Below, piece after piece: positions 21,201 through 53,950 of a DNA stretch of 64,000 nucleotides (position 1 is the first letter of the stretch; each line of letters begins with the position of its first letter). This DNA comes from Bilabrum cf. latius. Its lineage: Eukaryota. Both the position numbers and the translations under genes were made by a program. The DNA lies in the NCBI GenBank assembly GCA_965178125.1, contig OZ237774.1, forward strand, positions 124,001-188,000. The letters are read 5' to 3'. Under the pieces are notes generated by a model. The model made no database searches and had not been told where the DNA came from. It saw nothing but the letters and a program-made list of their open reading frames with translations.

Positions 21201-21351
21201 CGAAGACAAATTGAGAAGGTGCTCCCTGTGCGTGACAGCTGCACCGAATGAAGCATGCATGCTCAATTGTCCGTCACCTAGGACGGAGCAGTAGGTGATG
21301 TGGCTGTGCGATCAGCTGCTCGGCGACTCAGAAGGGGAGTACGGGAAATGA
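18253..21351 (+). CDS. RNI-like leucine-rich repeat protein (~1030 aa)
   Basis: LRR units LAQALANNCSLLQLNIS, LQCNASIQSLRLSG, LARNRSLLELRLAGC and MQALDLSGN. Fragments share one frame across TAGs at 18844, 18889, 19231, 19342, 20356, 20518, 20524 and 21292. TGA at 21349. Start uncertain. Confidence 0.75.
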
Positions 21352-21599
21352 CGCGCAAGCAAATGAAAACCCAGAACACAAGAAAATATTACGCAATGGA
21401 TCATGCTGTGAGTTTTCGATTGCGTGCGCTCAATTTGCCGGTCATCCCAGGGGCTTCCGTATGTGAGGTTGCAACCGCATTGGAAGCGAGCACGGGTTGC
21501 CGTTGTCGCGCGTTGCAGCCTTTGCTCATTCACAGCTACTGGCTCGCAACCAACAGCGAGGCAGCGTATTCGAAACAAACCTCAACCAAATTGACAACC

Positions 21600-23525: not shown

Positions 23526-23946
23526 ATGGTTGTGGGAGAGTATAGTTCTTTTGTAGAGAAATTGGACAGGTTTACTTGATGCATGTATGGCCATATAGAC
23601 TTGTCCATTCTGGCACTGCCTCACTGTGTGATGAATGGGACACGTCCCTTGCAAATGACGGCAACAGTCGCTCGAAATGGGCGAAAGCCTGTAGAACGAT
23701 GACAATCATGGGTCAATATTGAAGTAGCTCCATCGTGCTTACATGACCGAGTGTTCAATTGTAGGAGTCCCAGAGCGGCTGTCTGGAGGAGCAGTGAATA
23801 CTGTGAACCGAATCTCAGTTTTGAATCGTGAGAATTCAACCGCAACCAAGTTTGTATGCCGTCCAATCTTGGGCTAGTTAGCAAATGAATAGTACTTCTG
23901 CTGTATGTTATGGCCCTGAAAACTTGCCGCTGCTACAAACGAATGA

Positions 23947-26211
23947 ATGGTATCTGGATTCGACTTGTTATCGTCCCAAGCAGAGTCATTCGGAACCCCT
24001 AGCGAAGCAATCGAATCCGAAAGCAGTACTCAAACTATGGTGGTAAAGCACGCGGCAGACACGCTCGCCGCAAACCCGAGCATACCGCTCGACAGCAGCA
24101 GGCTCATGTTCGAGGTAGCGGCGCTACAATGGGCTGCATCTGGGTCCCTGCTGCCTCAACTCGGCCCCTCCCCACCGACTCACCGGCTCATCAGCACCGA
24201 ATCAACGGCAATCGGAACCACAGCCGCAACAGCCCCCCATGCAGCGCCGGGTGCAGAGGCCGCGCCAGCAGTTCTGGTGCCTCGAGTGCTTGGTTCCGCT
24301 CTTGATGCGGCGCCGCGCATCGCCGTTCTGGAGGATCTGGGACCACCCATTGCTCTACCGAGGTTCGATCCTCGGCTCCCTGATCATCAAACGGGGGGAC
24401 ACGCATCAGGTCGTGGACGAACCGACGACGATGGAACGTCGGGTCACCCCTGCAGGCCAACGGCATCGAGCGTTGATGCACATCCAGATGCACCTGCATC
24501 GCACTGCGATGCACCGTTCATCGACTCGATCCAGTCCGTCATGGATCTCACGGCAGGTGCATCGCACTGCGGCGCAACAGAGGCGCTGGAGAGAGCCCAG
24601 CGGGCCGCGGTGCAGGCAACCGGGCCAGTCGGGGCGGCCATCCGGAAGATCCACGATTCCGGTTTTAAAACGAACCCCCAGGAACGTTCGCTCTTCGGTG
24701 GTGCTGGATCTGCACCTGCTCCCGGCCCCGGTCACGTCAACCTGCCCATCCAGCGCACTCGTCACACCGTGCAGTACGCATCGGCGGCCGGTCACCTGGC
24801 AACGTGCCTGGACCGAACCGCTGGGGGCAGCAGCGGAGACGGACCCGACGATGACGACGCTGGCGATGTTAAAAGGGCAAGTGCTGGCAAAGTCCCGGCG
24901 GTGCCGGTGCCGGTGCCGGTGCCGGTGCCGGTGCCGGTGCCGGTGCCGGTGCCGGTGGCTGCAGCCCGTCTCTCGGTGATGGCTGCCGTGCTGGGGATCT
25001 CGCTGCGGGACGGCACGTATGTTCCGCACGGCACAGCGCAGGCAGCGTGTGATCGCCTGGTGGATGCGTGGTATGTAGCGCGCGGTGCCCGAGGTTCCGC
25101 CAGCGGAACCACGGCGGCGCTGCGCGAATGGGCATCGCAGGCGGCCGATCGGGTAGCAACGGAAACAGCCGCTCACCCACACCCACCGCAACTTCCGCTT
25201 CGATCCCGCCTTGCGGTAGGCAAGGAAGGGTGCGGCGAGGGCACCGAGAAGGGAACAGGGGATGCATCTAGTACTTCTTGCGCACCATCTGCAGATGCAT
25301 CGCATGGTGGCGCAGCATCAGCTCCCCCCACTCTTCGCTTCGGCGTGTGCATGACTCACGGGGACCTTTGGCCTGCTTCCGTGCTGCTTCGAGTGCACCG
25401 CACTGCAGACCTTGAACACGAAGGGAAGCGCCCGGACAGCCTCTAGACGGGGTTACGTGGTCCCTCTCATCGTGTGACGAGTGTCCAGCCGTGCCTCATC
25501 GACTGGGAAATGTCTCATTTCGGCAGGCCGCTGCAGGACTGCGCGCATTTCCTGGCGCACTGCATTGCAGCGGATCTACGGGCGGGTAGGGGCAGCACTG
25601 TTCCCTGGGGCCACTGGAACATCTCGGGTGCGCTCGGTCGGCTTGGTGGGTTGTTCTCTAGCTTTACGGCTGGTGCTTCTGGTAGTGCCACTGTGACCGA
25701 CGAGAACGGCACTGATGGGCCTGGTAGGTGCGCGGATGGGACTGCTGCAGACGCAGCCGAAGGTACACAGCGTGATGGGAAGAGAGACGCATCGGTCACT
25801 GCTGTGGGTAGCGCGGGTGACGAGTGTCCAGAAGACGCTGCGCTGGGTGGGGCAGGGGCTGGCACGAGCCAGCAGGGCGAGCGCGATGTCCCACAACCGC
25901 ATGCACCCAGTTGGCTTGGCCAGCGACTATGGGAGTCCTTCGCGGATGGGTACAGTGGTGTTGCTTGTGTGACGAGTGAAAAGGGTGTGACGAGTGGCAT
26001 AGAGGGGCTGAAGGCGCCGTCGGCCCACGATGCGGCTGTGGCTGTCGCGCTGCACATCAGCGAGCGGGCGCGGGATATGCCTGACGGTGGCAGCCAAGAC
26101 GTTGGCTATGGGTGTGAAGAGTGCCGATGGGGGCTCGTGCACGCAGCCTCAGAGCTGCTTGTCAGGGCGTGCAGCAGCTTTGCGTTTGCTGAGCTCAAGT
26201 CAGATTTGTGA
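23947..26211 (+). CDS. APH/choline-kinase-fold phosphotransferase (methylthioribose-kinase-like)
   Basis: VVKHA, RLMFEVAAL, HGDLWPASVLL and IDWEMSHFGRPLQDCAHF. The HGD and IDWE catalytic motifs are separated by an in-frame TAG at 25444. TGA stop. 5' end uncertain. Confidence 0.78.
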
Positions 26212-26391
26212 TGATCCCGGATTGCGTACGTATTACTCAAGTCAGAATCCGAAAAACACAACGTAACTTACTGTCGCGCTGATGGGGTTTTACGGAGTTT
26301 GCTTCGAAACGTAACCAGGGCCACAATGAGAACAACTCATTTTTAACGCACGTTCCTTTATAACTAATCCCTGGGAGGGCAGTCGAAATGC

Positions 26392-29300
26392 TCAGTCAGT
26401 TGCCCCGCAATACATACCGTGGACAGCGGACCAAAGCCCCAGGCACGCCTGCCTTGCCCCCTCCGCGGGCCAGCAGCCATCCACCGTTGGACGACGATTG
26501 AAACCCACCGCAGAGTCCCCTGCACTCGCCATACCAGTCCCACTGCTGATACCATTGGCATCGCCACCATGTCGACCCCGCGAGGCACCGAAATCGAGTC
26601 GCCTGCCCTGCCCCAGCATGCTGCCCGCCTCCGCCCCTGCTCCGCCCGCAGCGGCTTCACGAGCGGCTGCAATCTCCTCCTTCGCTTCCGAGTGCATCCG
26701 CGCCAGCCGCAACGCAGCCCTGCGGAGCCGGACGAGCCTTCTCGCGTGCCCCGCCGCACTCGTCACACCTGCCTCCTCCAGGCCGTCCAGCGACAGCTGC
26801 ACCAGCTGCGCTGCGGCCCCGATGGAGGCGCCCACCCAGCTCTCCAGCGCCTAGATCGCACTCGTCACCCTGGCATCACCCGCAGAGCGCGCGGTTTCTT
26901 TTTCTTCTGTTCCTGCCAGGCTTCTTCCTCGCTTTGATCCACCGGTGGGCTTTGCGCCGGACATCCAGGACTCCCCGGTGACCATGTGCGCGTTGCGGGC
27001 GTTGCTGGTGCGTGTGACGAGCTAAGGGGGTAGGAAAGGACCCGGAGCCGGAGGCAGGGTCGCGACCAGCGCCTCCCACGGCGGCAGCTCCCCTGGGGGT
27101 AAGTTCCGCACGGCGCCGCGCAATCCATCTGCCAGGGTCTGCTCGCCAGCCACCTCGATGGCTTGCCTGAATCCCGCCGCAGTGCGATGCACGTCGGGCA
27201 CGAGCGCGCCTCCGTGCATTGCACCCGTCGAAGGCCCCGCACCAGCCCCCGCACCGCTCTATGCCTCACCATTCGATCGGAGCAATCCGGCCCCCTGCTC
27301 CTTCAGCTCCAGCCTGGGCAGCTCGGGGGCGATCACAGGCACCCCATGGGCCCTGTGGCCCCGGGGCGCGACCACGACCGTCGGCTCCGCAGGACAGCGG
27401 AACCGATCCACGGCCTCCACGGCGCCGCGCAGATCCGCAAAACCGGAAGAGCGAAGAGACTCCCAGGGAGAGGCCTTGACTCCGCTACCACCGTGCGATG
27501 CACCCTCATCCCCACCGTCTCGCTCCTGCCCTCCCGCGGATAATATCGGCTCCGAGTGACTCATCGTCATCATCGCCCCAGCGTCTGCGAGAGCAGCGTC
27601 CAGCTGGTCCTGAAGGTCTGCCTGCAGCCCCAGGCCGGCCCACCGCCCCCCCGAACCGGCCTCAAAATGCAAGGCAGACTCCAGAGGCATCGGCGGTGCG
27701 CCGTCGTGCGATGCACCTTCACGGTGCCCGTAGGCAGGACCCGCCACGTCAGGCAGGGAGTCGCGGTCCTGCCCCCCCTCGCTCTCTTCGGCTCCTGCCT
27801 GCCCGTCCGTATCTGCACCACCGTGCGATGCACCCTCGAACACCGAGCCGCCACGTTCTGACCCCTGCGGGGTCAGTGGCCGCTGCTCCTCTGCCCCACG
27901 GGGTGTCAGTCTGCTCCCCTTCGGTGTCAGATTGCCCCCCATGCCCCCCCGGGGGGTCAGCAGGGGCGCGTCCCCCGGGATACCACCCCCCCCATCCAGC
28001 GGTACCCCCACCTCCGAACCGGTCGCAACCGACATGGCAGAAGCAGAGGCCTCCTGACCCGTTTGCAAATGAAGATGAAGATGAGATCCGGGCCGCTTGA
28101 ACGAGCTCCCCGGTGCGCCGCTGGGTCGGCCCCCCATAGGCTGCCCCTCCGCGGCGGCAGCTCTAGGGCCGCGAGCACTTTCGATTCCGGGTGCATCGAG
28201 GCCGCCTCGCTCCCCGCGGCGGCGGCTGCTCGACCTCGACCGGCTTGCGGAACCAACGCTCAGAAGCGCGGCGCCCCACGGGGCCACCGGCACGCCGAGC
28301 ATACCCACCTGCAGCCCGCCGGCACCTGCCGGTGCCGTGCCAGCCGCACTCGTCACACCAGCTGCCCCAGCGCCCACCATTGGCATACCCCCGACACGCC
28401 CCGTAGGCGCACTCGTAACAGCATCGGCGGCTCTGCCCAAGAGCTGCACGGCCGCTTCCTCCTGCCCCGCACCACCGTGCGCTGCACCCTCGGCCAGCGC
28501 GCCCCCCTCTCTTCTCTCAAGCACCCGCCTGCACACTCTCCTTAGCACTGCAGTGGGATGCTCCAGCCGGCAGCTGCCCCCGAGCGATTTCCGGCCCACC
28601 ATGGACCTGGTCACCGTGGTGAAGACAAAGTCTTCAAACCCGCAGCTGCGCGCGTACAGCCGCATCTCCTCTCTGGTCAGGCCCAGCTCCCGCTCCGCAC
28701 TCGTCACACCGTCCACGTCCAATTCTCCGGACGAGGTGCCGGCCTGCATGCCCCCCCTGCCATCGCCCCCCGGGCCGCCAACCCCCCCACCCCCACCGTC
28801 CCTTGCGCCCTTCTGGGCCTTCCTCTGGATCACAACCAGCCCGCCCGTGTCTTCGGCCTGCTGCTGCTGCACCTGTGAGGCACCTGCCTGCAGCTCCCGG
28901 ACGATCGGAGCCGAACCGTCCCCGCCCACGGTGCCCCCGCGCACGCCCCTAGCTCCACCCTGAATGCCAGCGCCCGCGATCCGATCCTGACCCGCGCCGG
29001 TTTGACCACCCCCGTCCCGATCCGATCCGTAGCGATACCTGCTGCTGCCTCTCGCACCACCTCTAGCCCCGCCTCCCCCCATCCGGTCGGTGTATCCCCC
29101 CGACCCCTCCTCCTCGTCCTCGTACTCCTCTTCCGTTGCGTGCACCGTGGGCAGCATGTCTGCCCTATGCGTCATCAGCACCATCTCCGTCCCTTCCGCC
29201 CTTGCCCGCCTTTGCACCACCTCCCTCCAGTCGTCCACCGCCTCGGCCCCCGCGTCATCCCCGCCGTCCAGCACGAACAGGATGGCATCCGCCGATCGGA

Positions 29301-30162
29301 GCAGCAGGCCAAGGTGCTCCGAGGACCCCCCCAGGAGCTCGCAGTATGGCACCTCCCACAGGAAAAGTGACACCGAGGCGTCGCTGTCAGAAACTGACCC
29401 CGAGGATGCCCCTCCGGATCGATGGCCCCGGGCCGGCCCACTCGTCACACCGGAAACCGTGGCACGCCGGCCGCTGCTCCTTCCACTCCCGGACCGCTGC
29501 ACCGCCGTCGCGCGCGGCGCCGCGTCCGAAATGCGGAACCGTTTCACGACCGTCAGCTCCGCACCCACCGTCATCCGCCTCTGAGTGGGTTCCGGTTTCC
29601 CCGCGATGCACCGCACGATGGTGCTCTTGCCCGAGCCGTTGGCGCCGACCAGCAGCACCGTCACGTTTCTCCTCGCCTGGAGGGACTGGAGGGCTCCAAG
29701 GTCAGCAGCGTACGCGTGGGAACTCTTCGTGACGTTTCGCAGACATGCCCGGGAAATGTCTCGGACCTTCTTTCGCGCAATGCGATGCACCTTGAGGACG
29801 GCCCGGGCGTCGGGTGGCTACGGGGCACCGGCCGTCTTTCGTGCCTCACCAGCGCTCCAATCGGATCTACGCCGGGTGAGCTTTGATGACCCGTCCCTGC
29901 TCCGTCGGTCTCCTCGTGTCAGCGAACGTTCCTCCACTGATGGTTCGCCGTTGGAGCGGGAGGACGCTGCCTTGCGGGCGAGCGGCGGAAGGGAGCCAGC
30001 AGCAGCTGCCGCCGAAGTGTCGTATCCTCCCACGGTTCTGCGGCGACCGTGCGCGCCAGCACTTTCAGTTATACTGGAGGCGCCGTCGTACTGGCTGCGG
30101 TCCACGCTGGACTGGGCGTCAGAGGGGCGCCTGTCGCTCGATCGATCCGGTTCCATGGCCAT
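26392..30162 (-). CDS. Atypical Ras/Rab-like P-loop GTPase-domain protein with a long disordered C-terminus (~1250 aa)
   Basis: G1 VLLVGANGSGKS, G2 MTVG, G3-like LFLWEVP, ADAILFVLD and G4-like MTHRAD. TAGs at 29818, 27259, 27022 and 26851. TGA at 26392. Confidence 0.7.
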
Positions 30163-30589
30163 CGCAAAAATGCGGCTTTGAATCAGCTTTCAATTTGCTG
30201 CAAACCGTGGAGAGCATACATGATGAATAAGGTCAAGCAGTGAATGGCATAGTTTGGATCCAGCACGCCAAATCAAGCAGGGTGCCATCGGAGTGCAAGC
30301 ATGTGCAACCGCGCTCCACATGCAAACACAGCCAGAACTCACGATGTCCACCTTGCTTGCACTGAGTTGTTAACTTATAAACTTACTAAATGACGAATAT
30401 TTACTGCAAATGCACGAGCACAGGCGACAGTACGCGAAACCGAGCAATTTGCTATGCTGCTCAATAGCGAAGGTTCTTCTTGGGTTCGTTGACCAAAAAA
30501 TGAGGCGAGTTCTTTGGCTCATTTTTGGCTCTCGCAGCCATCACTCGCGCACAGCTATCTCACGAACTGTTTAAGAGTGATTTCAACAG

Positions 30590-33500
30590 ATGGGAGTCCC
30601 CGCATTTTTCCGATGGCTCAAGGAGAAGTACCCAAAGATTCTGCTCGAGTTGATCGAGAGCGAAGTTGTGGACCTACCAGATGGTACCCGAGTGCCACCA
30701 GATTGGACTAAACCGAATCCAAATGGCGTGGAATTTGATAATTTATATATTGACATGAATGGGTGAGATTCTCGCTTATTTAAAGCTGCATTCATCGTTC
30801 GGCAATTGCTTGCGTTCTGAAGTTACTTCCGTTTCAGGCCAGGCAAAGCTGTACATTATTTCGCAGCGTTATTCACCCATGTGTACACCCGGAAGATATG
30901 GCAGCCCCGCGTAGCGAGCAGGAGATGTTCCGAAACGTGAGCACAGACACTATCGATGTCGCTCCCGAGCCTGCACGTTCCACTCGAGCACCGTACCATG
31001 ATCACACCACAACCAGCCCGCATAAACATGACACCCATTGCCATCTAATCCGCAGATTTGCCTGTACATCGACCGTCTCATGGCTGCCGTGCGCCCCCGC
31101 CGCCTGCTCTACCTCGCCATCGACGGCGTGGCTCCCAGGGCCAAGATGAACCAGCAGAGGACGCGCAGGTTCAAGACCGCCAAGGAGATCTCGGAGCACG
31201 AACGTGTGGAGAAACAGGTCAGGAAGGAACGGCTCCGGGCCCTCGAGAAGAAAAAAAGAAAGAAGAGAAAGAAGAGGGGCGGTGAGGGGGACGCCTCCAG
31301 CGGGGCTGGGGGGGACGACACAGTAGCAGGCGAAATGCAGGACGGCGATGACGATGACGAGGATGATGACGAGGACGAAGAGGAGGAGCTGTCCGAGCTT
31401 CCTCGCCAGACGGACGATTTTGGCAGGATCCTCGGCAAGTTCGACCACAACGTGATCACCCCAGGCACGCGTGAGCGTAGCAGTGTCTGCTTGCATTGCA
31501 GTGCATTGCAGTGGATTGTTCCCCGCAGGCACACGCCTTGACTCTCCAGGAGTACTTTCTGTTTTCTCTTATCCACACACGATTCTCTTTGGCCTCGCAG
31601 CGTTCATGGATCGCCTGGCCCGGTTCCTCAGGTTCTACATCGCGGAGCGGCTGAACAACCACCCGGGGTGGGACGGTGTGGAGGTCGTGTTCTCGGACGC
31701 TTCCGCCCCGGGAGAGGGGGAGCACAAGATCATGCAGTTCATCAGGGCACAAAGGGCGCAGCCGGGGTACGACCCGCACACTCGTCACGTGCTCCACGGC
31801 CTGGACGCCGATCTGATCATGCTGGGTTTAGCCACCCACGAGGCGCACTTCTCCATCCTCAGGGAACAAGTGTTCCCCAACAGACGGAGGGGAGGCCGTG
31901 CGGCGCAGAAGGAGGAAGAGGAGAAGTTCCGCAGGGAAAATCTTGCGCGGCGCCGGCGGATCTTCCGCGACGGCGACGTGGGCGTCCCCTTGAAACCGCT
32001 GCAGCTGCTGCAGATCTCGGTGCTTCGGGAGTATCTGGCCGCGGAGTTCTCCTCCCTGGACCCGAAAAGTGACCCCGCGCTCCGGGCTCAGATGGCCAGA
32101 GCGGCAGAAGGGGGTCAGTTTGCGGCACGAGGCCAGGCGCACACCCCCTTGCCCTTCCCCTTTGACATCGAGCGGATCGTTGACGACTTCGTGTTCATGT
32201 GCTTCTTCGTCGGTAACGATTTCTTGCCACACCTGCCCTCTTTGGACATCCGCGAGGGCGCCTTGGATCTTTTGATCGAGACCTACAAGCAGGTCCTGCC
32301 GGCACTGGGCGGCTATTTGACCAAGGAGGGCGAGATTGACCTGGTGCTGGCCGACGTGCTGCTCTCCAGGATCGGGCTGGTGGAGGACGAGATTTTCAGG
32401 AGGAGGCGGGAGAACGAAGAACGGATGGCGAGGAGGAGGGCGAGTCAGATGCACCAGCAGGCGCAGGGTGGCCAAAGTGGGCACAGAGGGCCCGGGGGCA
32501 GGGGCGGTGCAGCACCGGCCCCCGCCGCCATCCACGACATGATGCCGGCACGGGGACAGGGACAGGGGCAGGGCTCGGGGGGTCATGGACAAGGGAGGGG
32601 CGGAGGGCATGGAGGCACCGGCGCGAGCGGGCTGCTGGGCGGCGCCCCTCCTGGTTCCGCAAGCGCGGCGCCGGCAGGGCTCGGGCGCCAGGACAGCGTG
32701 CAGTCGGCCGCCAGTGCGGCATCCTCCACAGCCACCGGCGGCGCCGCGCATTCGCAGGGTGGCGGTTCCGCAGACCTATCGGAGGAAGCGCGGGAAGCGG
32801 CGCGCTCGGTGGCGGATCGGATCAGGAACGCGGGTGGCGGTGCCATGAACGTTGCGGCCAGGAGTCACGCCGTTGATCTCTCGGGTCAGGGGTAGCAGGC
32901 TCGGGCGCGACTCGCGGGTCACGACGCGTCGCAGGAGGCCCCCGGGCTCGATCTCGGGATCGAAGGCGGCTAGGGTGGTCAAAGCGGCGCGGCCTCTGGT
33001 GCCGGCTCCGAATCCAAGACCCAGAACCAGAGCGCTGCGGACGCTTTGCGGGACCGTATGCGCAAGGGCAAGGGCAAGGGCAAGGCAAAGGGCGGAACGG
33101 GCGAAAAGCGCGACAAGCCTCAGAAAAAGGCAAAGCAGGACAAGGAGCATCCGTCGGCCAAGGGGTCGTCGTCATCGTCATCGTCATCGTCATCCAGGAG
33201 CAAGCAGGCCGCAGCTGCTTCCAGTGCAGCCTGCGAGGACGCGGCACAGGCGGCCATGGTCGACGCCGAAGGTTCCTCGGAATTCAGCAAACCCGCTGAC
33301 GTGGCATCCGACCCGGTTGCAACCGCAGCTGGGGGCGACGGCCCGCCCGAAGATGCCGAGGGGGCGGACGAGGACGAGGACGAGGACGAGGCTGCATCGG
33401 CGGAAGAGCTGGAGGACTTGGAGGGAGTGGACGGAGCGGGGGGGTTGGACCTGCTGCCCGAAGGTGTGACGAGTGGGTCTGTTCCCATGGAGGGGGGCGA

Positions 33501-35748
33501 TGCCGGCGCTGCCGCAGCATCGAAGCCACCGTCCTCCTCCTCGTCCTCGTCCTCCTCCTCGTCCTCTTCTTCGAGCAAGGCCACCACTGCCGCTGCCGCT
33601 GCCACCGCCGCCAGCACGCCCGAATTCGAGCAGGAAGTCAAGCGTGCGGTGAAGCTCGCCATGGAAGACCTCCGTGCTGTGGACGAGCTTAAGCTGAGAG
33701 AAACCGATGAGGTGAGGCTGGGCGAGGCGGGCTGGAAAGAGAGATACTACAGGTGCAAATTCGGTGCCAAAGGGGTAGAGGGGGGCCAGCTGCGGAAGCT
33801 CATCTGCAGGAAATACGTAGAGGGTCTGCAGTGGGTGTACGGGTACTACTACAAGGGGGTTTGTTCCTGGGACTGGTACTACCCCTTCCACTACGCCCCA
33901 TTTGCGAGCGATCTGAACCAGGTGGATCAGTACAGGGCGACTTTCTCCCTCGGGAGGCCCTTCAAGCCCATTGAGCAGCTCATGTCGGTGCTGCCTGGGA
34001 GGTCTGCTCACTGCCTTCCGCCCGCGTGCGCGAGGCTCATGCGGCTCAAGTCTTCGCCCATTGCAGATTTCTATCCGTTGGATTTCCCCGAGGATCCCAA
34101 CGGGCACAGGTACCAGTGGCAGTGGGTGGCACTCCTGCCATTCATCGACGAGAAGAGGCTCCTGGAGCAGGTTCGCTAGCTGGAGGGAACGTTCACTGAG
34201 GAGGAGAACAGGCGGAACAGCCTAGGGATGGACCTGGTCGTGGCCAGGAGGACGCACCCCCTGGTCCGGGGGATCGGATCAAAGCTGGTGGTGTCCATCG
34301 AGGACGATGATGACGACGATGCAGCCGTCGCCGCAGCTGCAGCGGGAGAGAAGGCCGAATCTTCATCTGCATCTTCATCTTCATCGAGCGCGTCTGCCCC
34401 GGGGGGTGCGTCGAGTGACGGTGGGGGCCGGGAAGTGGTTCCGTTTTCGCACGAAGACGGGCGCCGCGCAGCGAACCGCCCGCTTGGCACGTCCGGCCGC
34501 TTGCTCAAGATGGCAAAGGGGCACTTCTGGCCCGTCGACTCGCGGATCGACCCCTACCGGCTCGGGATCTGGGCCGTGTCCGAGGACTTCGACGCGGCGC
34601 CGCGCAGCGGTGGTTCCGCAATCGGGGGAGGCGGCCCGATGGGCGTCCTGCGGAACTTCGCAGAGGGCGTGCTGCGCAGCGCCGCCGCCGCCTTCTCGTT
34701 GCTGCCTCCCCCTGCACGGCCGCACGCGTGTCACCTGCTGCCCGGTGCTCGCGAGGATAGCCCGGTGCTCAGGCAGGGGGATTACCTGGGTAAGATACCC
34801 AGGCTGAGCAGGGGCGTGTCGGTGGTGGATCTGGTGCTGGGGCCCGGCGCGGGAGGCGGGTACAGGGGGGGCGGGGGCAGGGGCGGATACCGGGGGGGGA
34901 GGGGGGGCAGAGGAGGTCGGGGAGGTAGAGGGGGCTGGGGCGGTGGTGGGCGGGGGCGAGGTGGTGGGGGACCCCCCGGGTGGGGGGGACCCCCCGGGGG
35001 GTATCGCCAGGGGTAGCAGTGGCAGGGACAGGGATACAACCGCAGTGCGATGCATCCGCCACAGGCTTAGCATTGGCAGCAGCAGCACCACCACCAACAG
35101 CCGAGCGGTGCCTATCCACAGCACCAGCACCAGCAACACCACCAGCAGCACCACCAGCACCAGCAACACCACCACCACCAGTAGGGGCAGTATTAGGGCC
35201 ATGGGCAGTACCAGGGGCAGCAGGGGAACGGCAGGTTTCAGCCCCGTCCTCGAATGGGGAACACGCCCCACGGGTACCCGCCGCACTCGTCACACGGGTA
35301 CCAGCCCCAGCCCCAGGGCCATTACCAGCCCCAGCCCCAGCAGCAGCACCATGCTCCCGGGGGTGGCATGGGCTGGGGTCCCCCCGCGCCCGGCAGTGCC
35401 GGTGCAGGGTATGGCCAGTATGCCGCTGGGGGTGCATCGCACGGTGGTGCACCCGGCATCGGTGCCAAGCGGTCGGCGGGTGCTGCGGGACTTGGCGCGG
35501 GGCCTGTGGCATAGCAGGGGGGGGCGTACGGGGGGCCGGCAGGGGCGGGTGCATCGCACGGCGGTGCCCCGTCGGCTGGCAGTGCTATGGGTGCTCAGGC
35601 GGCTGCCCTACTCAGCGGGAATTGGTCGGCGGTGCGGGGTCGGGGTCGGGGGCGCGGTGGCGGCAGGGGCAGGGGCAGGGGCAGGGGCGGCAGCAGCAGC
35701 AGGGGAGGAGGCGGAGGCGGATTCTCGTTCCGTGGGTTCTAGGGGTGA
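30590..35748 (+). CDS. XRN2: 5'-3' exoribonuclease 2 (Rat1/XRN2); exons 30590-30762, 30867-30936, 31056-31470, 31601-35748
   Basis: [78 protein letters not shown] and LPFIDEKRL. Three GTGAG..GCAG introns, 9 in-frame TAGs, RGG/Q-rich tail, TGA at 35746. XRN2 rather than XRN1 is inferred from length and tail. Confidence 0.92.
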
Positions 35749-36419
35749 TGATGCGGGCGACGACACCAGTGCGACCGTGAGGAGAATCGTACTGGTTGCA
35801 TCGGCATGAAGATGCTTGTTCCTATATGGTCGGGCGATGCAAGGGAGCGACGGGGAGCTTTCCGATTCGGCTTGTCCCTACAGCGTGATTCGGGTCGAAG
35901 CATTTGGAGTATCAGCCGCAAACAGTGTTCCTCGAGAAATACTCTACATGGGCTCCGAACATTTGCTCGTATTGAATAGAATTTGTGGATGGTCCAACTG
36001 CAACCGACGATTGCGGCGATACCGGCTCTGGCCCAGTACTGCTCCGTTCGCTCACGCTCCCCTCAATTTCGATTTAATGGAAGATTACGGTGGAGTGCAC
36101 GTGGGGTTTAGGCGGCGAAGACCGCCACTTTGACCCACTTTTGAGGCATATTGCAGAAGTGCAACTCGGCAGGGCCCAGGACAGAGTGCGTACGTCAGAG
36201 TTTGAATGGGTGTATATTCGGCAATAATCACTAAATGTACGTATTTCAAGCATTTACACGGAAATAAATAGTCACAATTTTGCCATGCTGCCGACGTGCA
36301 CCTTGTTTCAGCGGTGCGAACGGGCTCTACGCGACCACTTGACCTCGTGCGACCGCGATGATGCAAACCAATTGGCGCGTGCCCGATGAAGAAAGTCGTC
36401 GAATGGCTACAATGCAGCG

Positions 36420-37013
36420 TTACATGGGCCTGGTCGATACAAATATAGCCTCATCGGTTGACATTCCGATAAATCTGCAGAACTTGCGCTGGTATCGCTT
36501 CATGAAAAGGCTCGAATCGCGCTCGCTCATGGAAATGTCTACCATGCCGGCATGCTTGCCGTTCTTGTCGGGCCAAATCTCGCGTAGTTCGATCGGTTCG
36601 ATACCATGATCCTAAAGCCAACCCTGCATTGCTTCTAGATCTGTTCTCGTCGGTGATATCAACACCCTTTTCCTCGCTAAATGGCTTCGGTTTCCGTCGT
36701 CAGGAATCCTCCGCGAACACCGTACCACGGTCGAAACAGGCGATCCATGCCCAGACCCCAACTCTGAGCCTCCCGGAGGTAATGATGTAGAGCTGAATAT
36801 CCTGTTGCGCGCGCCCGCTGTCCTTGTGGGAGTGTTGGCCGCGTCGGAGGACGGCAGCTCCGGTGCGACCACGTTTCCACAACTTTGGCGTTCTTTCCCG
36901 GCTGGGGTCGCCTGACTCTGGGCAGATTTAACGCTGTTTTCTGGCTCAGATGAATCAACGCTTACATTGGTCTCAATTGATGCAACAGATGCAGTGCTAG
37001 CGCACATTCCCAT
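36420..37013 (-). CDS. Small protein with one copy of an unrecognised domain, paralogous to 38215-39042
   Basis: ORF 36612-37022 continues through TAG 36612 to TAA 36420. KRVLISPT..WL*DHGI..GKHAGMVDISM aligns with KSVIFAPT..WLMEHGI..GEHIGVFDLIM of the neighbouring gene. Confidence 0.55.
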
Positions 37014-38214
37014 GGCGTGCAAGACGATTGAACGATGGCTTGCGCTTGCTGAATCAGCATTAACATGGTTCCGGTTTTTGTGACAGGGGCTTGATTGGCC
37101 GCTTGCCTTCTGCTTGCAAAGCAGATTTGCCGCAAAATGTCTTTGGATTGGTGTTGTATGTGCCGTCGATTATAGTTTACGACATGATTGCCCAGCCAGA
37201 TTTGGTTTAACCTCTTCTACCGTGAGTATATCAGCTTTCATGTTCTTTTTTCTGCACAGGTTCGCAATAGCTCCGTCACTAAGCCTAGAACTAAAATTTC
37301 ATTGTAGCAATATACTGTACGAAAGTAATTCGCAACTGCATGAATCTAGCCTCTTGCCAACTATGCGCTCCCACGTATAGACTCAAGGTGATTGCAGCCC
37401 AACGCCAACATTACCACAGCCGCCAGTGGGCCGATGGTACTCAGACGCACACGCATACTGTAGGACAGTTGTTTAATGTGAAAAGTACATGACCACCAGT
37501 CGGCTCTAGGCCAGCTTGCCTACCTCGGCCGCGCTTGTCGGACCTTGGCGAGCTACTACAGCGCACTGCGGCATTTCCCCATTAAACTATGGATATGTAC
37601 GAGTCAGACGGGATCCATCCACGTTGAGCGTGGTGGAGATATTATTCGCAAATGGGGCCAGCCAGGACGGGGAGTTTTCTGATGGAGCGGCGGCTGCTTA
37701 GGCTGCTCATTGCAAGGCGCACGAGGAGTCGAGCTGCCAGTGGAACGGCGAATGCCCCAGCCTCAGTGCGCTGGATTCGCGCACTTGCAAAGCATTGACA
37801 CTTTATTAATTAGCATCCATCAATCATATACCAAGCTGATCATATATGTTTCTGCTTCCCTGCCTTCTCCCCCTCGGACTCATCCCTCCAGAGGATGTCA
37901 GGGGGCAGAGAGCACAGTGCAGTGCAGTGCAGCCGCTGTGCCAGTACTAGTGTCGCCGACCGCCGGTGAGCGTGCCCCCGGAGATCCAGGGTAGGGCAAA
38001 CTCACCTGATCACTGCATCGGGATTGGTCCACTCGGTGCCTCCACAATCCGTCCCCCCTCCATAGGCACATATTCAAGCACCACATTCTCGGGAAGGAAT
38101 CCCAGCAGGCCAATTAAGTCCAACAGAATGCCGTCCTGGTCCTCCACCAACTGGGTCGGGCCCGCTGCAATGCCCTGCATACTAGCGGCACCAACAGGCG
38201 CAATCCACACTCAC

Positions 38215-39042
38215 TCAGTACGGCGGCCTGATCCGCACAGCAACACGGGAACCAGTGATGCCACCATTGGAACGCCCATTCTTCGTCGGCCCATGGTTCG
38301 GCGGGCGCTGGCAGAGGCGAATGAACTGTAGCACAGCACGGTCAGGATGTAATGCCATGGCCCGCATGAACCTCCTTCCGATGCGCCTATGGTTCTCCAC
38401 CAACTTGAGAGCGTCCAGCGGAGGCATGATCAGGTCGAACACGCCGATGTGCTCCCCTGAGCTGGGATGGGAGAGCAGTTTCACCTCCGCGCGGATGCCA
38501 TGCTCCATGAGCCATAGAGCCACGAATGCAGCATTGGCCTCGGTGGGCGCGAAGATGACCGACTTGGCACCGGTCCTGTCCTTGCTCCTGCTGAGTCTGA
38601 CCGTGGCTGTGAACACCGTGTTGTGCTCGCTCATCTGCAGCTTGGCCAGGAAGGCCTTCTTGTTCCCTGGCTGCATGAGCCTGGCGATGTCCTCCCGAGG
38701 CATGCTCATCTCAAACTGCGGGTTGGTGCCTTGCAGCCGCCGCACGTCATGCGCACAGTAGCCGTTCTCCTTCAGCCATGCAACGATCTCTCTCACCGGG
38801 GTCTTGTAGCTCGTCCGCGTGATGATCTTGGTGCACTGGACGTACATGCAGCGTGGGCGTGGAATCCCATCCGGCTGCCGAGGTGGTTGCAACCGGTGTG
38901 CGGCACCAGCGTGTTGTTGAGCGCGCGCGTGCATAACACGAGAATCAACGTCGACGATGGGGCCGCCATCGTCGAAGTCAATTTTAGCGTTTGGCACGAC
39001 TTTGCCACCCCGATCTGCTCGATTCTAGCCTAGAACCGACAT
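38215..39042 (-). CDS. Protein with two tandem copies of an unrecognised (possibly RRM-like) domain
   Basis: ATG at 39042 reached through TAG 39025, TGA at 38215. Internal similarity IVAWLKENGY..FEMSM versus VALWLMEHGI..FDLIM. Confidence 0.6.
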
Positions 39043-40734
39043 CACCCAATCATAGCAGCCTATTGTTACCGTTGCAGTCTCGCCGGTTCTAGCTGGATCC
39101 CGTCTGCCGCCGCTGTCTGACTTTGGCTCGTTCAGCGCTTCATTTACTCGCTGGCCACCCGCTTGAAACGTGACGCCAGGCAGATCAAGCTAGTATTTGC
39201 GATTCATGAGAACATGGTCGTATGAACCGGGCCCGATTCGCATATTGGTAGCTGCGCCAGCGGTGTCTGCGACGCGTATCCAACCGGAACGGTGAAAGGA
39301 CATGGCGGCGAAAATATGCTAAATCTTCGAACATGAGAGCATTCGCTGGATCAAATTAGGCATACAATAGACACCAGTATGGCAACTGTACCAGTCACTC
39401 ACTCTATTGGACTGCTTTCCTGTTGGAAACCTTCTGTTCTTGGAAGTTTCCGAAGGCATTTCTGGCTGGAGCGGGGTCCTTAGCAGTATCTGCCGTATTG
39501 ACAAGTCGACTGGACTTGTAACCTACGGAATAAAACGACACACACGGCGCTAGATTGTGTCAACATATGCAGTTTGCTCGATGTTACGCCTTGGCGAGCA
39601 GTGCTAGATCTACTCACTGGTGTTCTAATGGGGCGGACCAGCCTTGGTCTACCTACTGGGGAAATCAGCTACAGTATTATTCATCCTATTGCCGGGCAAT
39701 AGAGTCTGAATAATACTAAGCTTGTTTGTGTGGCAAAAAGTGGGGGACACTGTCTGTGTAAAACTGAATTAAATTCAACCACACATAACAAATCACTTAC
39801 CCGCCAAGACCTACATCTTGCCAGAAAGAACTAAAAGGGGTGGCCGAAGCGAGTTGCCCCAACGCGATCCCCAAATTGCCCCCACCATCCCATCAATCCC
39901 TGACATCCCAGTCCTCTCTGCCTGCGCGAAGCTATTCATCGCTTCGGGAGGACGACGTCTGCGAGTGCTATGAGCCTCTACCATTCCAGCAAGCACGATT
40001 CCATGCTGCCTCCGGACAGAGTGAATGATTTTATTCAAACTGGCCTCGGGATCAACCATGATCTAATTCCTGCCCCCTGTCTGCTTCTACTCTGGAGCCC
40101 CACTGACTGTCCTTCCGGAGTCTCTTCCCAACCAATACCTTCGTACGGTTCAGTTACACGTTCTCATACTATCCTATCATCAAAACCATGTCAAGGCCCT
40201 CCGCACGAGCAAGCGCAAGTATATGTCTTCTCGAACTCGGGATACCCCGTCACCTGCAACTACCAACTGTTGTACAACTGCTTCTCTTCCAATGAACTGT
40301 CTTCGTTAGGTCCAACCCTCAAAAAGGGATATACTACTGAGCAAGGAATACCATGGCATGACAGCCGGGAGTTGGAGTTGTGAGTGCCAGAAGTGGGGGT
40401 GCTCGAGCTCTAAACGGCTACATCGCTTTCGCGCGCAGCCGCACAGGATTAACCTGCCGCGTTAGACGCCCTAGCCAACCACCAGCACCTCAAACACAAG
40501 GTTCAACTATCGAGTAATATGTTTCTGCTGTCACTCTACCCGTAGATGACCGTATCGGTTCGCGCTGAGGCTGAAGACGACAGGACTAGACAATTAGGTC
40601 ACCGAGGGTCCGGGTGCGAATCACCAGCTGTCGGACCCCCCAAACAGGCAGCACAGACAAACTCCACATATTAGTTCTCAAGTATACCGCGTGTTGCACT
40701 TACAACTCCATGGTATTTCCCCATGGGGACACTT

Positions 40735-43056
40735 GGGGGGGATCTGATATTTTGTGGACTCAACTCAAAAGCGCACGCTATCACGAAGAAACATCTGGAA
40801 CGAGGGCCCGGGACCTACCAGACTTCACGCTTCAGCTGCAATGGCCTAAACCACCTAAGCTCCACCCTGGGGACCCATTTCCCCATGGGGAGCGTCAGCA
40901 TTCACGTTCCCTCCGGCGCCCGCTGCCGGCACCCCGTCCTGCTGCCCGTTCTGAGCCAACCCTGCCTTGACGTTGGCGATCGCCACGGCGAGGTTGTTGT
41001 TTTCGGCTGCCCCTACAGCCAGGCTGGCAAAGTCCTCTCGGACCGCCCTTGCGAGCGCCCGTTTGGCCTTCGCTGCAGCCCTCCTCGATCCCTTCGAGAC
41101 AAAATCGAGGATCCTTGAGTGGTCCTGCATGACCCGTGAGTACATAGTGTGGTACACACGCTGTTCCCCGCGCACGTGCTGGTGCTAGGCGGCAACGGAG
41201 AGGCGAGCCTTTGCCACGGAAGACCACGAGAGGCGCGCGTTGGCCGGACGAGTCGGAACCCGCCGCCCTTTGTCCTCCTGCCTCTTCTTCCGCAGCTTAT
41301 CGAGCACCTACAGGAACTCGACCGACTTCTCCCCGATCCCCCCCAACACGTCCACCACGAAGGGTACGACCCGCACGCCACTGCGTACCGCCCCTTTCTG
41401 CGTCCTCACGGTCCCAGGACACCACTTGTCTTCTCCTCCGATCCGGACGCCGAGCGCTCCGAGGTCGACGGGCCTGCCGTAACTGGCCAGCTTCGTGGCA
41501 TGCGCGGCCCGCAGAGCAGACCCCTCTTGCCAGTCGCTGCCAATCCTCCACGACGAGCGGTCCCACCGGTAAGTTGCCGCAGTGGAATCAACCACCGTGA
41601 CATCGATGAGATAAGCCGTCCCCTCGTGCTCAAAGAATAGGTCGCCTCGTGGCACGAGCGGACCGCGCCGACCCGGCAGCCGGGCCACTTGGCCCTCTGG
41701 CTCCCGGATAGGGCGTCTGCCCGTGGCCTCGCGGACCACCTGCTCGAGCACGTTGAGCACCCGGAAGTGCCTGCGGCCTGGAAGGCCTCCGCAGACACGC
41801 TTGTCCTTGCACGTGGCACCGTGGCGAACTGACTAGATCAGTTCGACTACCTTGCCCTGCTTCCGGCACCCCGGGCAGATCTGCGTGACGCGCCACGCCT
41901 CCCCACATGCACCGTGCGTTGCCCCAAGAGGTTGTGGGGGACAGCTGCACGGCTGTGGGATGGCGAGACGCTGGCAGAACATGCCCCGGGCATCTTCAGG
42001 CTGGACTCGGCTCAGGACAGAGAGCGGCGCATGCAGCCAAGACCCGGCTCCTTGGGACCTGGCGGCGCGGATTGTGGCTCGCGCCACTCCTGCGTACTCT
42101 CTGGTGACTGCATCGACTGGAGCGAGTCTGTCGTGCGCAAGCGGAGATGAGGCATCCCAGAGGAGCCTCTCCACCTGCACTCGCTCAGCCAGTGCCGTCA
42201 CATGGCTCTGGTTGTGCCCTCCTGCGGCACCTTCGAGAAAACGAATAACCGCCTGCGATGCAGTGGGTGCCGGCTGCTCCCCAGCCAGCTGCCTCGTCAC
42301 CCATGCCCGAAGGTCCTTCACCTCCAGGCGCCAGGGTTCAGTGGCCCCACCGCACAGCTCCATACGGGCTGCCTTCTCGGCTGGGCTGCCCAGGAGTTCC
42401 GAAGTGCGGGCTGTGTCCCACACCATACCATAGCGTGGGGGGACGTCAGCCTCCGGAACAAGTGGAAGCAACGGCAGGAGCAACGGACTCGGGAAACCAG
42501 CCATCCCGAAATTGTCTTGCTTCCCCTCTTGTACGAGTCTACAGACAAAGAGCATTGTATTGCAAGCGTTGCGCAGATCCATGCGGTGGACTGCATGACG
42601 GAATGCAAGGATTCGATTATTTTGGGATCGGCTGGCGCCGCGCACATCACGGCAACTAGATGTTCCGCATATCTCAACAAGTCTAGGCACCCATGTGCAT
42701 AACCATCCCAGTGCTGCCAGCTTGCACCACGATAAGACGCGTACCATGCACGATACGCCTGCGCCAGCGTCACCAGAGGGTTGCCCCGCGAGTCCTTGGT
42801 CAGTGGCTTGACAGCCCTGCACATGGCCACCAGTTCCGGAGCGCGGCACCCCTCCTGTTGATACATCCACGAGCCTGAATTGATATGCTACTAATCCTTC
42901 GCCCGCCCCCTGGAATGCTTCATCTACCATCTCATCCACCCCCGTGTCCTCTTCATCTTCACTCTCCTCATCTTCCTCCAAGCCCGCAGCTACTCCCATC
43001 TCGCCATCACCTGCAGCCCCAGCGCGCGATGCAGCGTGATCCTGCGCCTGCTCCAC
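40735..43056 (-). mobile_element. CRE-like non-LTR retrotransposon (Cys/His region plus restriction-like endonuclease), no intact RT seen; 5' limit uncertain
   Basis: AGSWL..P, CxC/CxxC..RH, EP..RGDL..LIDVTV, K..Y, VPFVVDVLGG and RLSVAA* follow the C-terminal motif order of RLE-type elements. The ORF runs through TAGs at 41833, 41308, 41185, 40855 and 40846 to TGA 40825. The 3' end is a C7 run. Confidence 0.8.
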
Positions 43057-43399
43057 GAGGTCCGCGTATCCGCGTCGAAGTCCGCGATGTGGGTCACCGC
43101 TGGTGGCAGATGCGATCTTCCCAGCCGGTAGCCGCCTGCGTAGGCCTGGGCCAGTGCCGCTCGCTTGGCTGCCGCAGGATCGGGCTTGGAGGCAGCGGGC
43201 CGCCGCATCCCGTGCAGCCCGAGCATGCAGCGCGCGAAGGGAGTCGAATGGGATCAGCAGCTTTAGCTACGCGTCTACATGCTGCGTGAGAAGCAGTGCC
43301 TGGTGCAGGTGTGGCAGCCCGGCAGCAGCAGGGCCCACGGAGCGACGCTGCATGGGAAGAACCCACTGCTGTAACAGTCAAGCATGTCTTGCTCAGACC

Positions 43400-46300
43400 T
43401 CATCTACGACGTCTACGCTTTACTTGTTGGGCAATAGTGCCGTCTTTCGACGTGACATTAATGGCACTATGCTCTTTGTGACTAGGCTACCTAGATAATA
43501 CTGAATCGCCACCCGCAGACCCCGTCTCATCGCCACCTGGTGCTGCTGCCCCCCATGGATCGCCACCAGCAGACCTCGTCATTTTGTCTCCAACCGACGC
43601 TGCTGGTAGTTTCAAACGATCCTAAGCTCGTTTTAGCAGTCTCTCTACCGACAGGCAGGGCCGCCTAGCAGATCGTAGCTGGGCCAGTAGATCGCTCCCA
43701 GGCACTGTATCACCCTCTGTGCCCTCGGGGGGATGCATGGCCAGCGACGCAACCAGGGAGGAGGCACAGCCAGCACCATGCCCTGCAGATGCCATGCGCG
43801 CCTCCCACGCCTCCACCAGGACTCTCATGCACTCATCATGTTTTCCAAGCACGGCCGCCATCAGCGGACCACTCCGCCACCCCGATTGCCCAGGCCCGGG
43901 GATATCTACCACTGCTATAGGGCCACGAATCTCCATCCCACCCGCCAGCTTGCCCAGCCTCAGTCGCTTGGCCAGCTCCAGCGGCCTGCCCTCCCTTGCA
44001 GCTCGGTGCACCATGACAGCATCTCGTTTGGCCTCCACGGCCCTCCTCCACCGGGCCAAATGCAGGATCCTCGGGATGAACTCCCGGATGAGCCTGGCCG
44101 TGGCTGACTTCCTTTTGTAGTCTGCTTCCTCTGCCGGGGTGTGTCCGAACTGCAGCAGTAAGGTACAATGCGCAATACGTACATGAATATGTTAGTAGTT
44201 TGAGAAGTAAACTAATCCCCAAGAAAATCCATCTCACGCTGCCCTTGGCCGTCCTGCTGGCTCCGGCCCCCAGCAGAGCGAGAGCCGAGGCGTCCTGGCC
44301 CCAGTAGGCGGCCTTATGCAGAGGGGTATCCTTGTCCTGCGGAATCAAAGGGCCAAAGACGAATATTATCATCTCAAGCCATATTCCATATCACAATCAC
44401 GTTCAAGGTCCGCAGGGGAGGACTCATGAGCAGCTATTGACTTGGATCGACCGATTTCCGGTTTCTAGACTACCGCTGGCGTGCTCCGCTCTGGTCGCGA
44501 ATTCAGCCACCCAATAGCATGCAAATATGCAAAACAAACGCATCAAATACAATCAAATTAATCAGCAAGCCAATCATAGTCATTCACATGCGAGAAACGG
44601 GCTAGGTGGGCCTGGCCGACGAACATGATACTCGAGGCAAGCAACTGCTTCGGCTCTGGAATCCGTTGATTCAACATCTAAATTCAGCACTCAGGTGCGC
44701 TGATTCCAATGGTACCAATTTAGTCGTCTAGTTCCGCTTGCATCCCGAGCTAGCCCGGCTCCAAGACACAAGCGCTCCTCGGCCACCTCACGGCCAGGCC
44801 GCACCCCTCCCATCCCGACTCACAGGGAACACAGACCAGCCAGCACGCATCCATCACCTCCAGCATGCTCCCAAATATCCAATCATCCCATCCATACATA
44901 CATCACAAACACTCACAATGTCCTCAGCATTCACATTGGCCCCCGCTGCCACCAGCGCATCCACCACGTCGGCGCGGCCACTGCGGGCTGCCCTGTGCAG
45001 CGGGGTGTACTTGTCCTGTGAGGAAGGGAAGCGAGGGAGACCAAAGGGGGGATGATAAGGAATGGCATGGAAAGGGGGACAACAGGGGGAGCCAGCGAGA
45101 GGAAACTGGGAAGCAGAAGGGTCGGCGCCGCGCAATCCACCCATAGACGGGCATCTGCCAGCCACAGGTTCCGCTGCACCCACTCGCCCCAGCAACAAGC
45201 CGGCACTGCCGGCATTCCCGCATATCAACCCACAATCCCAAATACAATCACACAACCGCATCGCCAGACCATCCAGCCAGGACTGCGGCAAGGCTGGCTG
45301 GTGGTCATGGTTGCAAGCTCGCGAAGCGCAGTCAGCTGAAGGTGGTAGATCGCAAATGCTGTACCGTGTGCAAGTGGCGCCCATCGGACGCAGCTCCACG
45401 AGAGGACTCAGAATCTGGTTGGATCGCCGTGTGGCTCCGCCTGCATCCCGAGCTAGCCCGGCTCCAAGACACAAGCGCTCCTCGGCCACCTCACGACCAG
45501 GCCGCACCACTCCCATCCCGACTCACAGGGAACACAGACCAGCCAGCACGCATCCAGCACCTCCAGCATGCTCCCATCCATCCAATCATCCCAGCCACAC
45601 ATACATCACAAACACTCACTTTGTCCTCAGCATTCACATTGGCCCCCGCTGCCAACAGCGAACCCACCACGTCGGCGTCGCCCCTTTGGGCTGCCCAGTG
45701 CAGCGGGGTGTTCTTGTACTGTGAGGAAGGAAGGCGAGGGAGACCAAGGGGGGGATGGCAGGGATGGCATGGAAAGGGAGACAAAAGGGGGATACCATGG
45801 TCGCAAGCTGGGCGATGCGCAGTCGGCTGAAATCGTTAGATCGCAAATGTTGTACCGTGTGCAAGTGGCGCCCATCGGACGCAGCTCCACGAGAGGACTC
45901 AGAATCTGGCTGGATCGCCGTGTGGCTCCGTCTGCATCCCTAGCTAGCCCGGCTCCAAGACCACAGCGCTCCATAGCCACCTCACGACCAGGCCGCACCA
46001 CTCCCATCCCGACTCACAGGGAACACAGACCAGCCAGCACGCATCCATCAACTCCAGCATGCTTCCATGCATCCAATCATCCCAGCCACACATACATCAC
46101 AAACACTCACATCATCCTCAGCATTCACGTTGGCCCCCGCTGCCACCAGCGCACCCACCAAGTCGGCGTCGCCCGTTTGGGCTGCCTCGTGCAGCGGGGT
46201 GCTCTTGTCCTGTGTGAGGAAGGAAAGCGAGGGAGGGCAAGGGGGAGATGGCGGCGAGAGGGAACTGGGAAGCAGAGGGTCGGCGCCGCGCAATCCACCC

Positions 46301-53789: not shown

Positions 53790-53950
53790 GGTGGAGTGCA
53801 AGGATTCGATTATTTTGGGATCCACTGGCGCCGCGCACATCGCGACAACTAGAATGTTCCGCATACCTCAACAAGTCTAGGCACCCGTGTGCATAACCAT
53901 CCCAGTGCTGCCAGCTTGCACCACGATAAGACGCGTACCATGCACGATAC
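53732..53950. repeat. ~220-bp segment duplicated at 42539-42756
   Basis: Direct alignment in the same orientation, about 14 differences. Confidence 0.9.

Follow-up and report, generated by a model that had tools for sequence, protein, structure and literature searches.

What does UAG mean in the genes of Bilabrum cf. latius? The question is raised by a stretch of 64,000 nucleotides (nt) of its DNA (contig OZ237774.1, positions 124,001 to 188,000), named here the window, in which a gene for an XRN2-like 5'-3' exoribonuclease carries a glutamine- and histidine-rich C-terminal tail (35014-35230, forward strand) interrupted by four in-frame TAG triplets (35014-35016, 35068-35070, 35182-35184 and 35194-35196). 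An original prediction, made from the sequence alone, took UAG to be glutamine on the strength of five internal alignments and equated the code with NCBI translation table 15. The present analysis supports this assignment on the basis of the residues that face TAG at 16 alignable sites, the ends of protein fragments from relatives, the lack of in-frame TAA in the ten longest reading frames and the TGA ends of the genes. Thus, UAG is almost certainly a sense codon and, as far as comparison of sequences can tell, very probably specifies glutamine, with UAA having no sense meaning.

The window is GC-rich (54-71% G+C, with 0.6-0.8 G+C at third codon positions, GC3) and eukaryotic nuclear in character. 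It contains, according to Pfam, genes for XRN2-like, WNK-like kinase, glycoside hydrolase family 3 (GH3) and cadherin plus IPT/TIG repeat proteins, together with a gene for the U6 small nuclear RNA (snRNA) and an intron with GT..AG ends.

UAG as a sense codon

Eleven open reading frames (ORFs) delimited from stop to stop, comprising 14,302 codons, contain 74 TAG in frame, at least one each, and neither TAA nor TGA. Position-specific base composition leads to an expectation of 161 TAG, 50 TAA and 56 TGA, and the remaining two frames of the same DNA contain 115, 53 and 444, respectively. The figure of 74 is an upper bound because stop-to-stop ORFs include 5' parts that are probably untranslated; in the eleventh ORF (38218-39768), eight of the nine TAG occur in the first 193 codons. 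The zero for TAA is not built into the definition of the ten longest ORFs, since their limits are unchanged, and TAA still missing, when TGA is taken as the sole stop. Delimited in that way, ORF 38218-39768 takes in a single TAA, located at its 5' edge. Summed ORF length under different sets of stops does not discriminate between codes, because in GC-rich DNA read-through of TGA opens more spurious ORFs than read-through of TAG.

Conserved domains run across TAG codons. The XRN2-like gene (31032-35748, forward strand) has nine of them in frame and ends in TGA at 35746-35748. It is made of an exon to 31470, an intron (31471-31600) and an exon from 31601 to 35745, as mapped from 31032 onwards. 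Its product matches XRN_N and XRN_M (Pfam, E = 1.5e-37 and 4.3e-127); the closest proteins share only 54% identity with it, and most of those with names are from plants. Alignment with the Rat1/Xrn2 structures of the PDB (E ~1e-127) is ungapped across the TAG at residue 908. The GH3 gene (51039-53867, reverse strand) has TAG at 52602-52604, 52482-52484, 51540-51542 and 51156-51158 (residues 422, 462, 776 and 904), and its alignment with solved beta-xylosidases (PDB) is likewise ungapped across residues 422 and 462. Homology also crosses TAG in iduronidase, esterase and HECT domains encoded by loci from metagenomes.

These loci come from a metagenome collection probed with two copies, within 30 nt, of a 12-mer that recurs in the window (GTGTGACGAGTG). 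At least 120 loci were returned, and about 20 of them, nearly all from one project, have 55-60% G+C, the same peptides as the window (GVTSA and ASHGG-like) and the same TAG behaviour. They include a 2708-codon ORF for a HECT ligase with 30 TAG and a 1722-codon SMC ORF with 14. In total, 19 ORFs (18,056 codons) contain 145 in-frame TAG; 13 end in TGA, one in TAA and five run off their contig. No nucleotide similarity was found between the window and these loci, and it counts against their use as evidence that kinship with the window organism is inferred from the 12-mer, the peptides and TAG usage. Diverged homologous pairs were sought as well: matches between the fetched loci were all near-identical copies, and a protein-level search among the TAG-using loci gave no usable pair. 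Collectively, the conserved domains and the counts in the window indicate, with near certainty, that UAG is translated within genes and is not a terminator there.

Public sequencing runs bear on the fate of TAG in RNA. The stretch 26001-36000 is present in runs of four studies, the contigs of which list no differing letters at TAG. Runs were compared over 18001-38000, with X6, X7 and X8 guessed to be RNA and X1 DNA-like. Contigs of X6, X7 and X8 (two studies) skip 31471-31600, with GT..AG ends, and X1 retains it. This 130-nt XRN2 intron is the sole one evidenced across 20 kb with five long genes; once it is removed, the two reading frames are in register and the conserved ...ITPGT / AFMDRL... 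junction is regained. The listed ORFs have 31 TAG codons within 18001-38000, and 21 of these are covered by unbroken contigs of X6-X8 (13 by contigs of X7 or X8), again with no differing letters; for example, the XRN2 TAG at 35194 is located within an RNA-like contig of X7 (35189-35471). To the extent that contigs can tell, TAG is not removed by splicing or altered by editing. Two points reduce the weight of this evidence: the RNA nature of X6-X8 is a guess, X6 being marked 'probably DNA', and the spliced contigs end before the first XRN2 TAG, the link being by run and gene and not by single molecule.

UGA, in contrast to UAG, is a stop codon. It is missing in frame against the 56 expected and the 444 in the other two frames; it stands at the 10 ORF ends mapped in the window, with TAA at none of them; and contigs of both X6 and X8 over the ORF at 21252-23522 end at 23581, 56 nt past its TGA. 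A dual role, in which UAG also terminates translation at some gene ends, is unlikely. In its favour, gene ends number only 10, one XRN2 TAG precedes the TGA by two codons (residue 1429 of 1430) and one GH3 TAG is 39 codons from the end. Yet every ORF with a mapped end runs in frame to TGA, the frame stays open for the 39 codons past GH3 TAG 904, and the RNA-like contigs of the 21252-23522 gene end after TGA and not after a TAG.

The amino acid specified by UAG

If UAG is a sense codon, its meaning can be sought in the residues that face it. In the single best homologue, TAG at 16 alignable sites is paired with Q five times, with K, A, R and L twice each and with V, E and H once each. At a background of 4.5%, five or more Q among 16 have a probability of ~5e-4. 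The proportion resembles that of real glutamine codons, since in the same relatives only 65 of 131 (50%) genuine Q codons of these proteins are opposite Q. Two of the five sites are in GH3, namely residue 422, with Q in a 61%-identical relative, and residue 776, with Q in an 81-88% relative and an indel adjoining; in relatives P0137 and P0133 both residues are opposite Q and residue 462 is opposite A. A third is the nucleophile elbow of an esterase in locus L037, G-X-S-A-G-A-H, for which the closest homologue has GQSAGAH; a homologue search with the X-bearing esterase fragment gave one match only. The remaining two are alpha-L-iduronidase sites in locus L113, where human IDUA has Q, as has a second GH39 structure at one of them. 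A HECT site was counted as R, the residue of the best match, and is Q in HUWE1.

The strings on which the original prediction relied are all found in the DNA, with different bearing on glutamine. In the XRN2 tail, GQY*G (ggg cag tat tag ggc) echoes GQYQG (ggg cag tac cag ggg), and in the WNK-like protein, encoded on the reverse strand, X stands at residues 789 and 791 in AQTXAXDQSQGQG (codon top coordinate 14137) and at residues 1138 and 1141 in FXPYXQQRQPQ (13090). Both cases fit a Q-rich, low-complexity context; taken alone, they are weak support. The proposed alignment of cadherin repeats holds: FTIGLCDGXIKV, with TAG at 59278-59280, is followed by a repeat that reads FTIGESSGQLSV, and BLASTP pairs TAG with Q when repeat 1 is compared with P0286, a 99%-identical copy of repeat 2. 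The string RLSVAAXH is present (TAG 41185-41187) in an ORF without Pfam family, and its agreement with a CRE-type consensus is putative. For GH3, the string SAXENLRAARQGIV is found with TAG at 52482-52484, but the glutamine position had been placed one column off. The family reads H-[Q/R]-[A/Q/E]-L-A-L and residue 462 falls in the A/Q/E column, with A 44, Q 32 and E 20 among 143 aligned residues (150 homologues), the 61%-identical relative having A. The column of residue 422 is variable too in the same 150 homologues (A 27, T 26, R 18 and Q 15). Stronger support than that of these five items is provided by the pairing of GH3 TAG 422 and 776 with Q and by the breaks that relatives' gene calls show on window Q.

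These breaks concern fragments in public protein collections, 50-99% identical to the GH3 and cadherin/TIG proteins of the window, which derive from gene calling in the same species and in relatives. The genes of relatives are stored in pieces because standard gene callers stop at TAG, so that the window residue next to a fragment end is informative. Eleven fragments align to their last residue, and the next window codon is TAG in three (P0133, which ends exactly at GH3 residue 904, P0286 and P0288), Q in five (P0134, P0139, P0216, P0287, and P0283 with P0285 counted once) and E, F and G in one each. The same-species fragments P0288 and P0286 stop at TAG residues 509 and 685 of the cadherin/TIG protein. 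With the Q content of these proteins (4.0%), at least five Q among the eight informative ends have a probability of ~5e-6. Five of the fragments (P0284 and P0286-P0289) are located on one contig of 30,582 nt and are 91-99% identical to the cadherin/TIG gene of the window, an identity that assigns them to another strain of the same species; the end of P0287 at a window CAG suggests a TAG/CAG polymorphism between strains.

Summed over partners and fragment ends, BLOSUM62 support amounts to 22.5 bits for Q, 8.5 for E, 6.0 for K, 5.0 for R and -4.5 for S, which places Q 14 bits ahead of Glu; Leu scored -14.5 bits in a run of 14 sites. Among residues up to three positions from TAG, Q also shows the highest enrichment (1.84-fold in the window and 1.45-fold in related loci). 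Correlation of neighbour profiles gave W or H as best matches and was uninformative. Glutamine is clearly the best-supported meaning of TAG in these comparisons.

Several observations weigh against it. Of 120 XRN2 homologues, mostly from plants, 101 have K opposite residue 908; a galactocerebrosidase site is E; one iduronidase site is L; SMC has L, R or S; TIG residue 1718 is V in the 69%-identical relative P0283; GH3 residue 462 is A in close relatives; and two weakly aligned sulfatase sites are H and K. The same-species fragment P0284 ends before a window E. The samples are small (16 sites and eight informative ends), 10 of the 16 sites are from metagenome contigs, nearly all of one project, and that relatives' fragments end at TAG is itself inferred from the three ends that coincide with window TAG. 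TAG could be sense with another meaning, most plausibly Glu, Lys or Arg, and it is the 11 non-Q partners and the end before E that speak for this possibility. It is nevertheless improbable. No alternative is seen more than twice among the 16 sites, none approaches the summed score of Q, five of the eight informative ends are on Q, and the spread of partners is that of genuine Q codons, half of which are paired with Q.

UAA and the decoding machinery

Glutamine is encoded in the window by 498 CAG and 111 CAA, so that the 74 TAG would make up roughly a tenth of its codons. Were TAA a synonym of TAG, the CAA:CAG ratio would predict about 16 TAA in the window and about 78 in related loci (202 CAA and 374 CAG); none is seen in frame in the ten longest ORFs of the window or in the related loci. 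Use of UAA as a glutamine codon, the mark of table 6, is thus not seen. Gene ends are less telling, and this is a point against the assignment of UAA: TGA at 10 of 10 ends is hardly informative on TAA, since base composition renders out-of-frame TGA about eight times commoner (444 against 53, ~89% TGA). Termination at TAA is seen at one of 14 mapped ends, in related loci only, in a plausible zinc-finger gene. Kept out of reading frames, UAA has the behaviour of a codon that is either a stop or unused.

A code in which TAA and TAG are both Gln, with TAA merely too rare to appear in a GC-rich window, is very improbable. It would agree with the GC3 of 0.6-0.8 and with the 10 window genes of which none ends in TAA. 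Against it, CAA is common, the 16 or so TAA it predicts are missing from TGA-delimited ORFs, and in related loci CAA accounts for 35% of CAA plus CAG, yet ORFs of 1,700-2,700 codons are without TAA, and the zinc-finger gene ends in it. The pattern is supported as that of table 15, not table 6.

Scarcely credible, finally, is the view that the TAG codons are not translated as such, belonging to introns, pseudogenes or assembly errors or being edited to CAG in RNA: many do lie in low-complexity stretches without homologues, some ORFs include untranslated 5' parts and the kinds of runs are guessed, but all 11 ORFs have TAG and none TGA (one admits TAA, at its 5' edge), TAG codons are found inside aligned conserved domains and recur in other strains and species at three fragment ends, contigs from four studies show no differing letters, and the sole intron seen is a normal GT..AG one, cleanly skipped.

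With UAG as glutamine, the codon would be read in cytoplasmic translation of the nuclear genes of a GC-rich eukaryote. By analogy with other eukaryotes in which UAG is reassigned, the reading may be performed by a tRNA-Gln(CUA), and the termination factor eRF1 may have lost recognition of UAG and kept that of UGA, as proposed for Iotanema. There, a changed GTS motif of eRF1 is the proposed cause of the split between UAG and UAA (PMC9161772). Searches for these components returned nothing: ARAGORN detected tRNA genes neither in the window nor in 60 loci, Rfam had U6 as its sole match in the window and no match in 20 loci, and an eRF1 gene is missing from both the window and the fetched loci. 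The lack of a candidate tRNA in these sequences counts against the proposed decoding.

Other genes of the window

The WNK-like kinase ORF (9791-16501, reverse strand) matches Pkinase at residues 56-285 (Pfam, E = 1.3e-41) and continues in a long low-complexity tail; its 13 in-frame TAG are all outside the kinase domain. The cadherin and IPT/TIG repeat ORF (57754-63999, forward strand), open at the window end, has six, including that at 59278-59280. A TIG cluster of the Atlas includes three haptophyte members, a hint too weak to serve for placement. Six are also found in the ORF at 40828-43377 (reverse strand), including 41185-41187. Named a retroelement in the original prediction, this ORF is of unknown family, with no Pfam match at E<=0.1 and with unnamed eukaryotic clusters as look-alikes in the Atlas. 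A short ORF just upstream of it (43403-44191, reverse strand) has a stretch of 49-78 residues, with 50-65% identity, in common with ORFs in loci L119 (667-1638) and L072; judged by this similarity, the three may represent a shared mobile element or gene family. Further on, at 44400-49200, ORFs overlap in several frames, a segment of about 60 residues is duplicated within the ORF at 46218-47546 and no Pfam match is found. This region is probably repeated, non-coding or degenerate element DNA.

Five other ORFs, in part covered by RNA-like contigs, complete the set together with ORF 38218-39768. At the window start, an open 2425-codon low-complexity ORF (3-7277, forward strand) has six in-frame TAG and ends in TGA. 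Inside it, Tandem Repeats Finder detects 85 copies of the 6-nt unit GTGCTG (3424-3936), which read as ~170 residues of alternating Gly-Ala. The 1042-codon ORF at 18223-21348 (forward strand), with a weak leucine-rich-repeat match, has nine TAG, seven of them within a single unbroken RNA-like contig of X6 (18288-20588). It is followed on the same strand by the 757-codon coiled-coil-like ORF already mentioned (21252-23522; seven TAG, six within RNA-like contigs of X6 and X8) and by an ORF of 754 codons that faintly matches a kinase-like family (APH) and has one TAG (23947-26208). On the reverse strand, a P-loop protein is encoded by 1265 codons (26395-30189), with four TAG, three of which are within an X6 RNA-like contig. 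The U6 spliceosomal snRNA gene (17795-17904, forward strand), the sole Rfam match of the window, is full length and scores 58.3 bits, above the gathering score of 44.

Recurrent motifs

The 12-mer GTGTGACGAGTG occurs 35 times between 1063 and 35295, against 0.02 expected, and is missing from 36-64 kb. Long ORFs contain 34 of the copies, 27 in sense and seven in antisense orientation. Sense copies are read as G-V-T-S-A/G (23 copies) or C-D-E-C (four copies) and never in the frame that would give TGA. Flanking sequences are not conserved, and 61 copies are found in 103 kb of related TAG-using loci. Since the 12-mer starts with G|GTGTGA, a function as 5' splice site was considered and is ruled out: of the 18 copies in 18001-38000, 11 are traversed by RNA-like contigs and so are not spliced out, and 27 of the 34 intragenic copies are sense in two stop-free frames. 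Pairs within 30 nt also occur in contigs of 26 prokaryotic genomes and in two viral contigs (L121-L148), as well as in many AT-rich metagenome contigs, some of which are tandem arrays of the 12-mer (28 copies in L040 and 22 in L117). None of L121-L148, or of the AT-rich loci among L001-L120, shows read-through of TAG; the pair is thus not exclusive to the lineage.

A second motif, with core GTGCATCGCAC, has nine copies in the window (e.g. 35420-35454 and 5530-5566) and is translated as A-S-H-G-G-A. It often takes the form GGTGCA-TCGCACGGTGG-TGCACC, an imperfect hairpin-like inverted repeat, and similar xHGGA peptides are found in related loci.

Comparison with known genetic codes

The code deduced here is like that of table 15 organisms in that UAG alone is reassigned, glutamine is its best-supported meaning, UAA is no sense codon and use is wide, with TAG in all 11 ORFs. 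It is unlike them in its stops and composition. These organisms mainly use UAA, whereas TGA stands at 10 of 10 ends in the window and at 13 of 14 mapped ends in related loci, in DNA of 54-71% G+C. Long genes, a 130-nt GT..AG intron and a nearby U6 gene are also unlike ciliate macronuclear DNA. In published accounts, reassignment of UAG alone to glutamine is described in the fornicate Iotanema spirale (PMC5304391) and in the ciliates Hartmannula sinica, Trochilia petrani and Protocruzia tuzeti (PMC11687900). UAA is the main stop in Iotanema (104 UAA against 15 UGA), in the rhizarian discussed below and in phyllopharyngean ciliates (93.5-100% UAA in ciliates) (PMC5304391, PMC11687900).

Table 6 is found, among others, in oxymonads and hexamitids. 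The present code shares with codes of this type the reading of a UAR (UAA or UAG) stop as glutamine and the location of reassigned codons in Q-rich tracts, and departs from them in that UAA is missing from the reading frames of the window where ~16 would be expected. For such tracts, a parallel is given in PMC10942620, and PMC11687900 lists UAA plus UAG as Gln in many ciliates, Ulvophyceae, Hexamita, Streblomastix and Amoeboaphelidium. UAG is also decoupled from UAA in nuclear codes where it means Leu, in the rhizarian exLh (PMC5304391) and in metagenome-assembled genomes of TARA phyllopharyngean ciliates (PMC11687900), or Ser, in Scotinosphaera (as cited in PMC11687900). The resemblance stops at the amino acid, with -14.5 bits for L and -4.5 for S against 22.5 for Q. 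TAG is glutamine, too, in crAss-like and other gut phages with code 15, as reported in PMC9523058, but the window belongs to a eukaryotic nuclear genome, with a spliceosomal intron, U6 snRNA and XRN2, WNK kinase, HECT and SMC genes.

In the full-text literature searched, no GC-rich non-ciliate with UAG as Gln and UGA stops was found described. This is probably a known kind of code in a new lineage, since the DNA is GC-rich with genes ending in TGA and known cases mainly use UAA. More tentatively, with the balance somewhat on the side of doubt, a GC-rich lineage represented in runs from four studies and in three or more metagenome projects may have reassigned UAG to glutamine independently of ciliates and fornicates, with UGA as practically the sole terminator and UAA nearly unused, and with the hyper-abundant in-frame 12-nt element read G-V-T-S-A as a further trait. 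A practical consequence concerns gene callers, which in their standard form cut such genes at every TAG; annotation and binning need table 15. If the proposal is right, reassignment took place under GC and not AT pressure, close to textbook stop-codon capture, and the lineage offers a useful test of whether disuse of the stop codon (codon capture) or change in tRNA and eRF1 comes first. Nuclear codes that split UAG from UAA are rare, and a GC-rich case would, on the same condition, be a further independent one, at the opposite compositional extreme.

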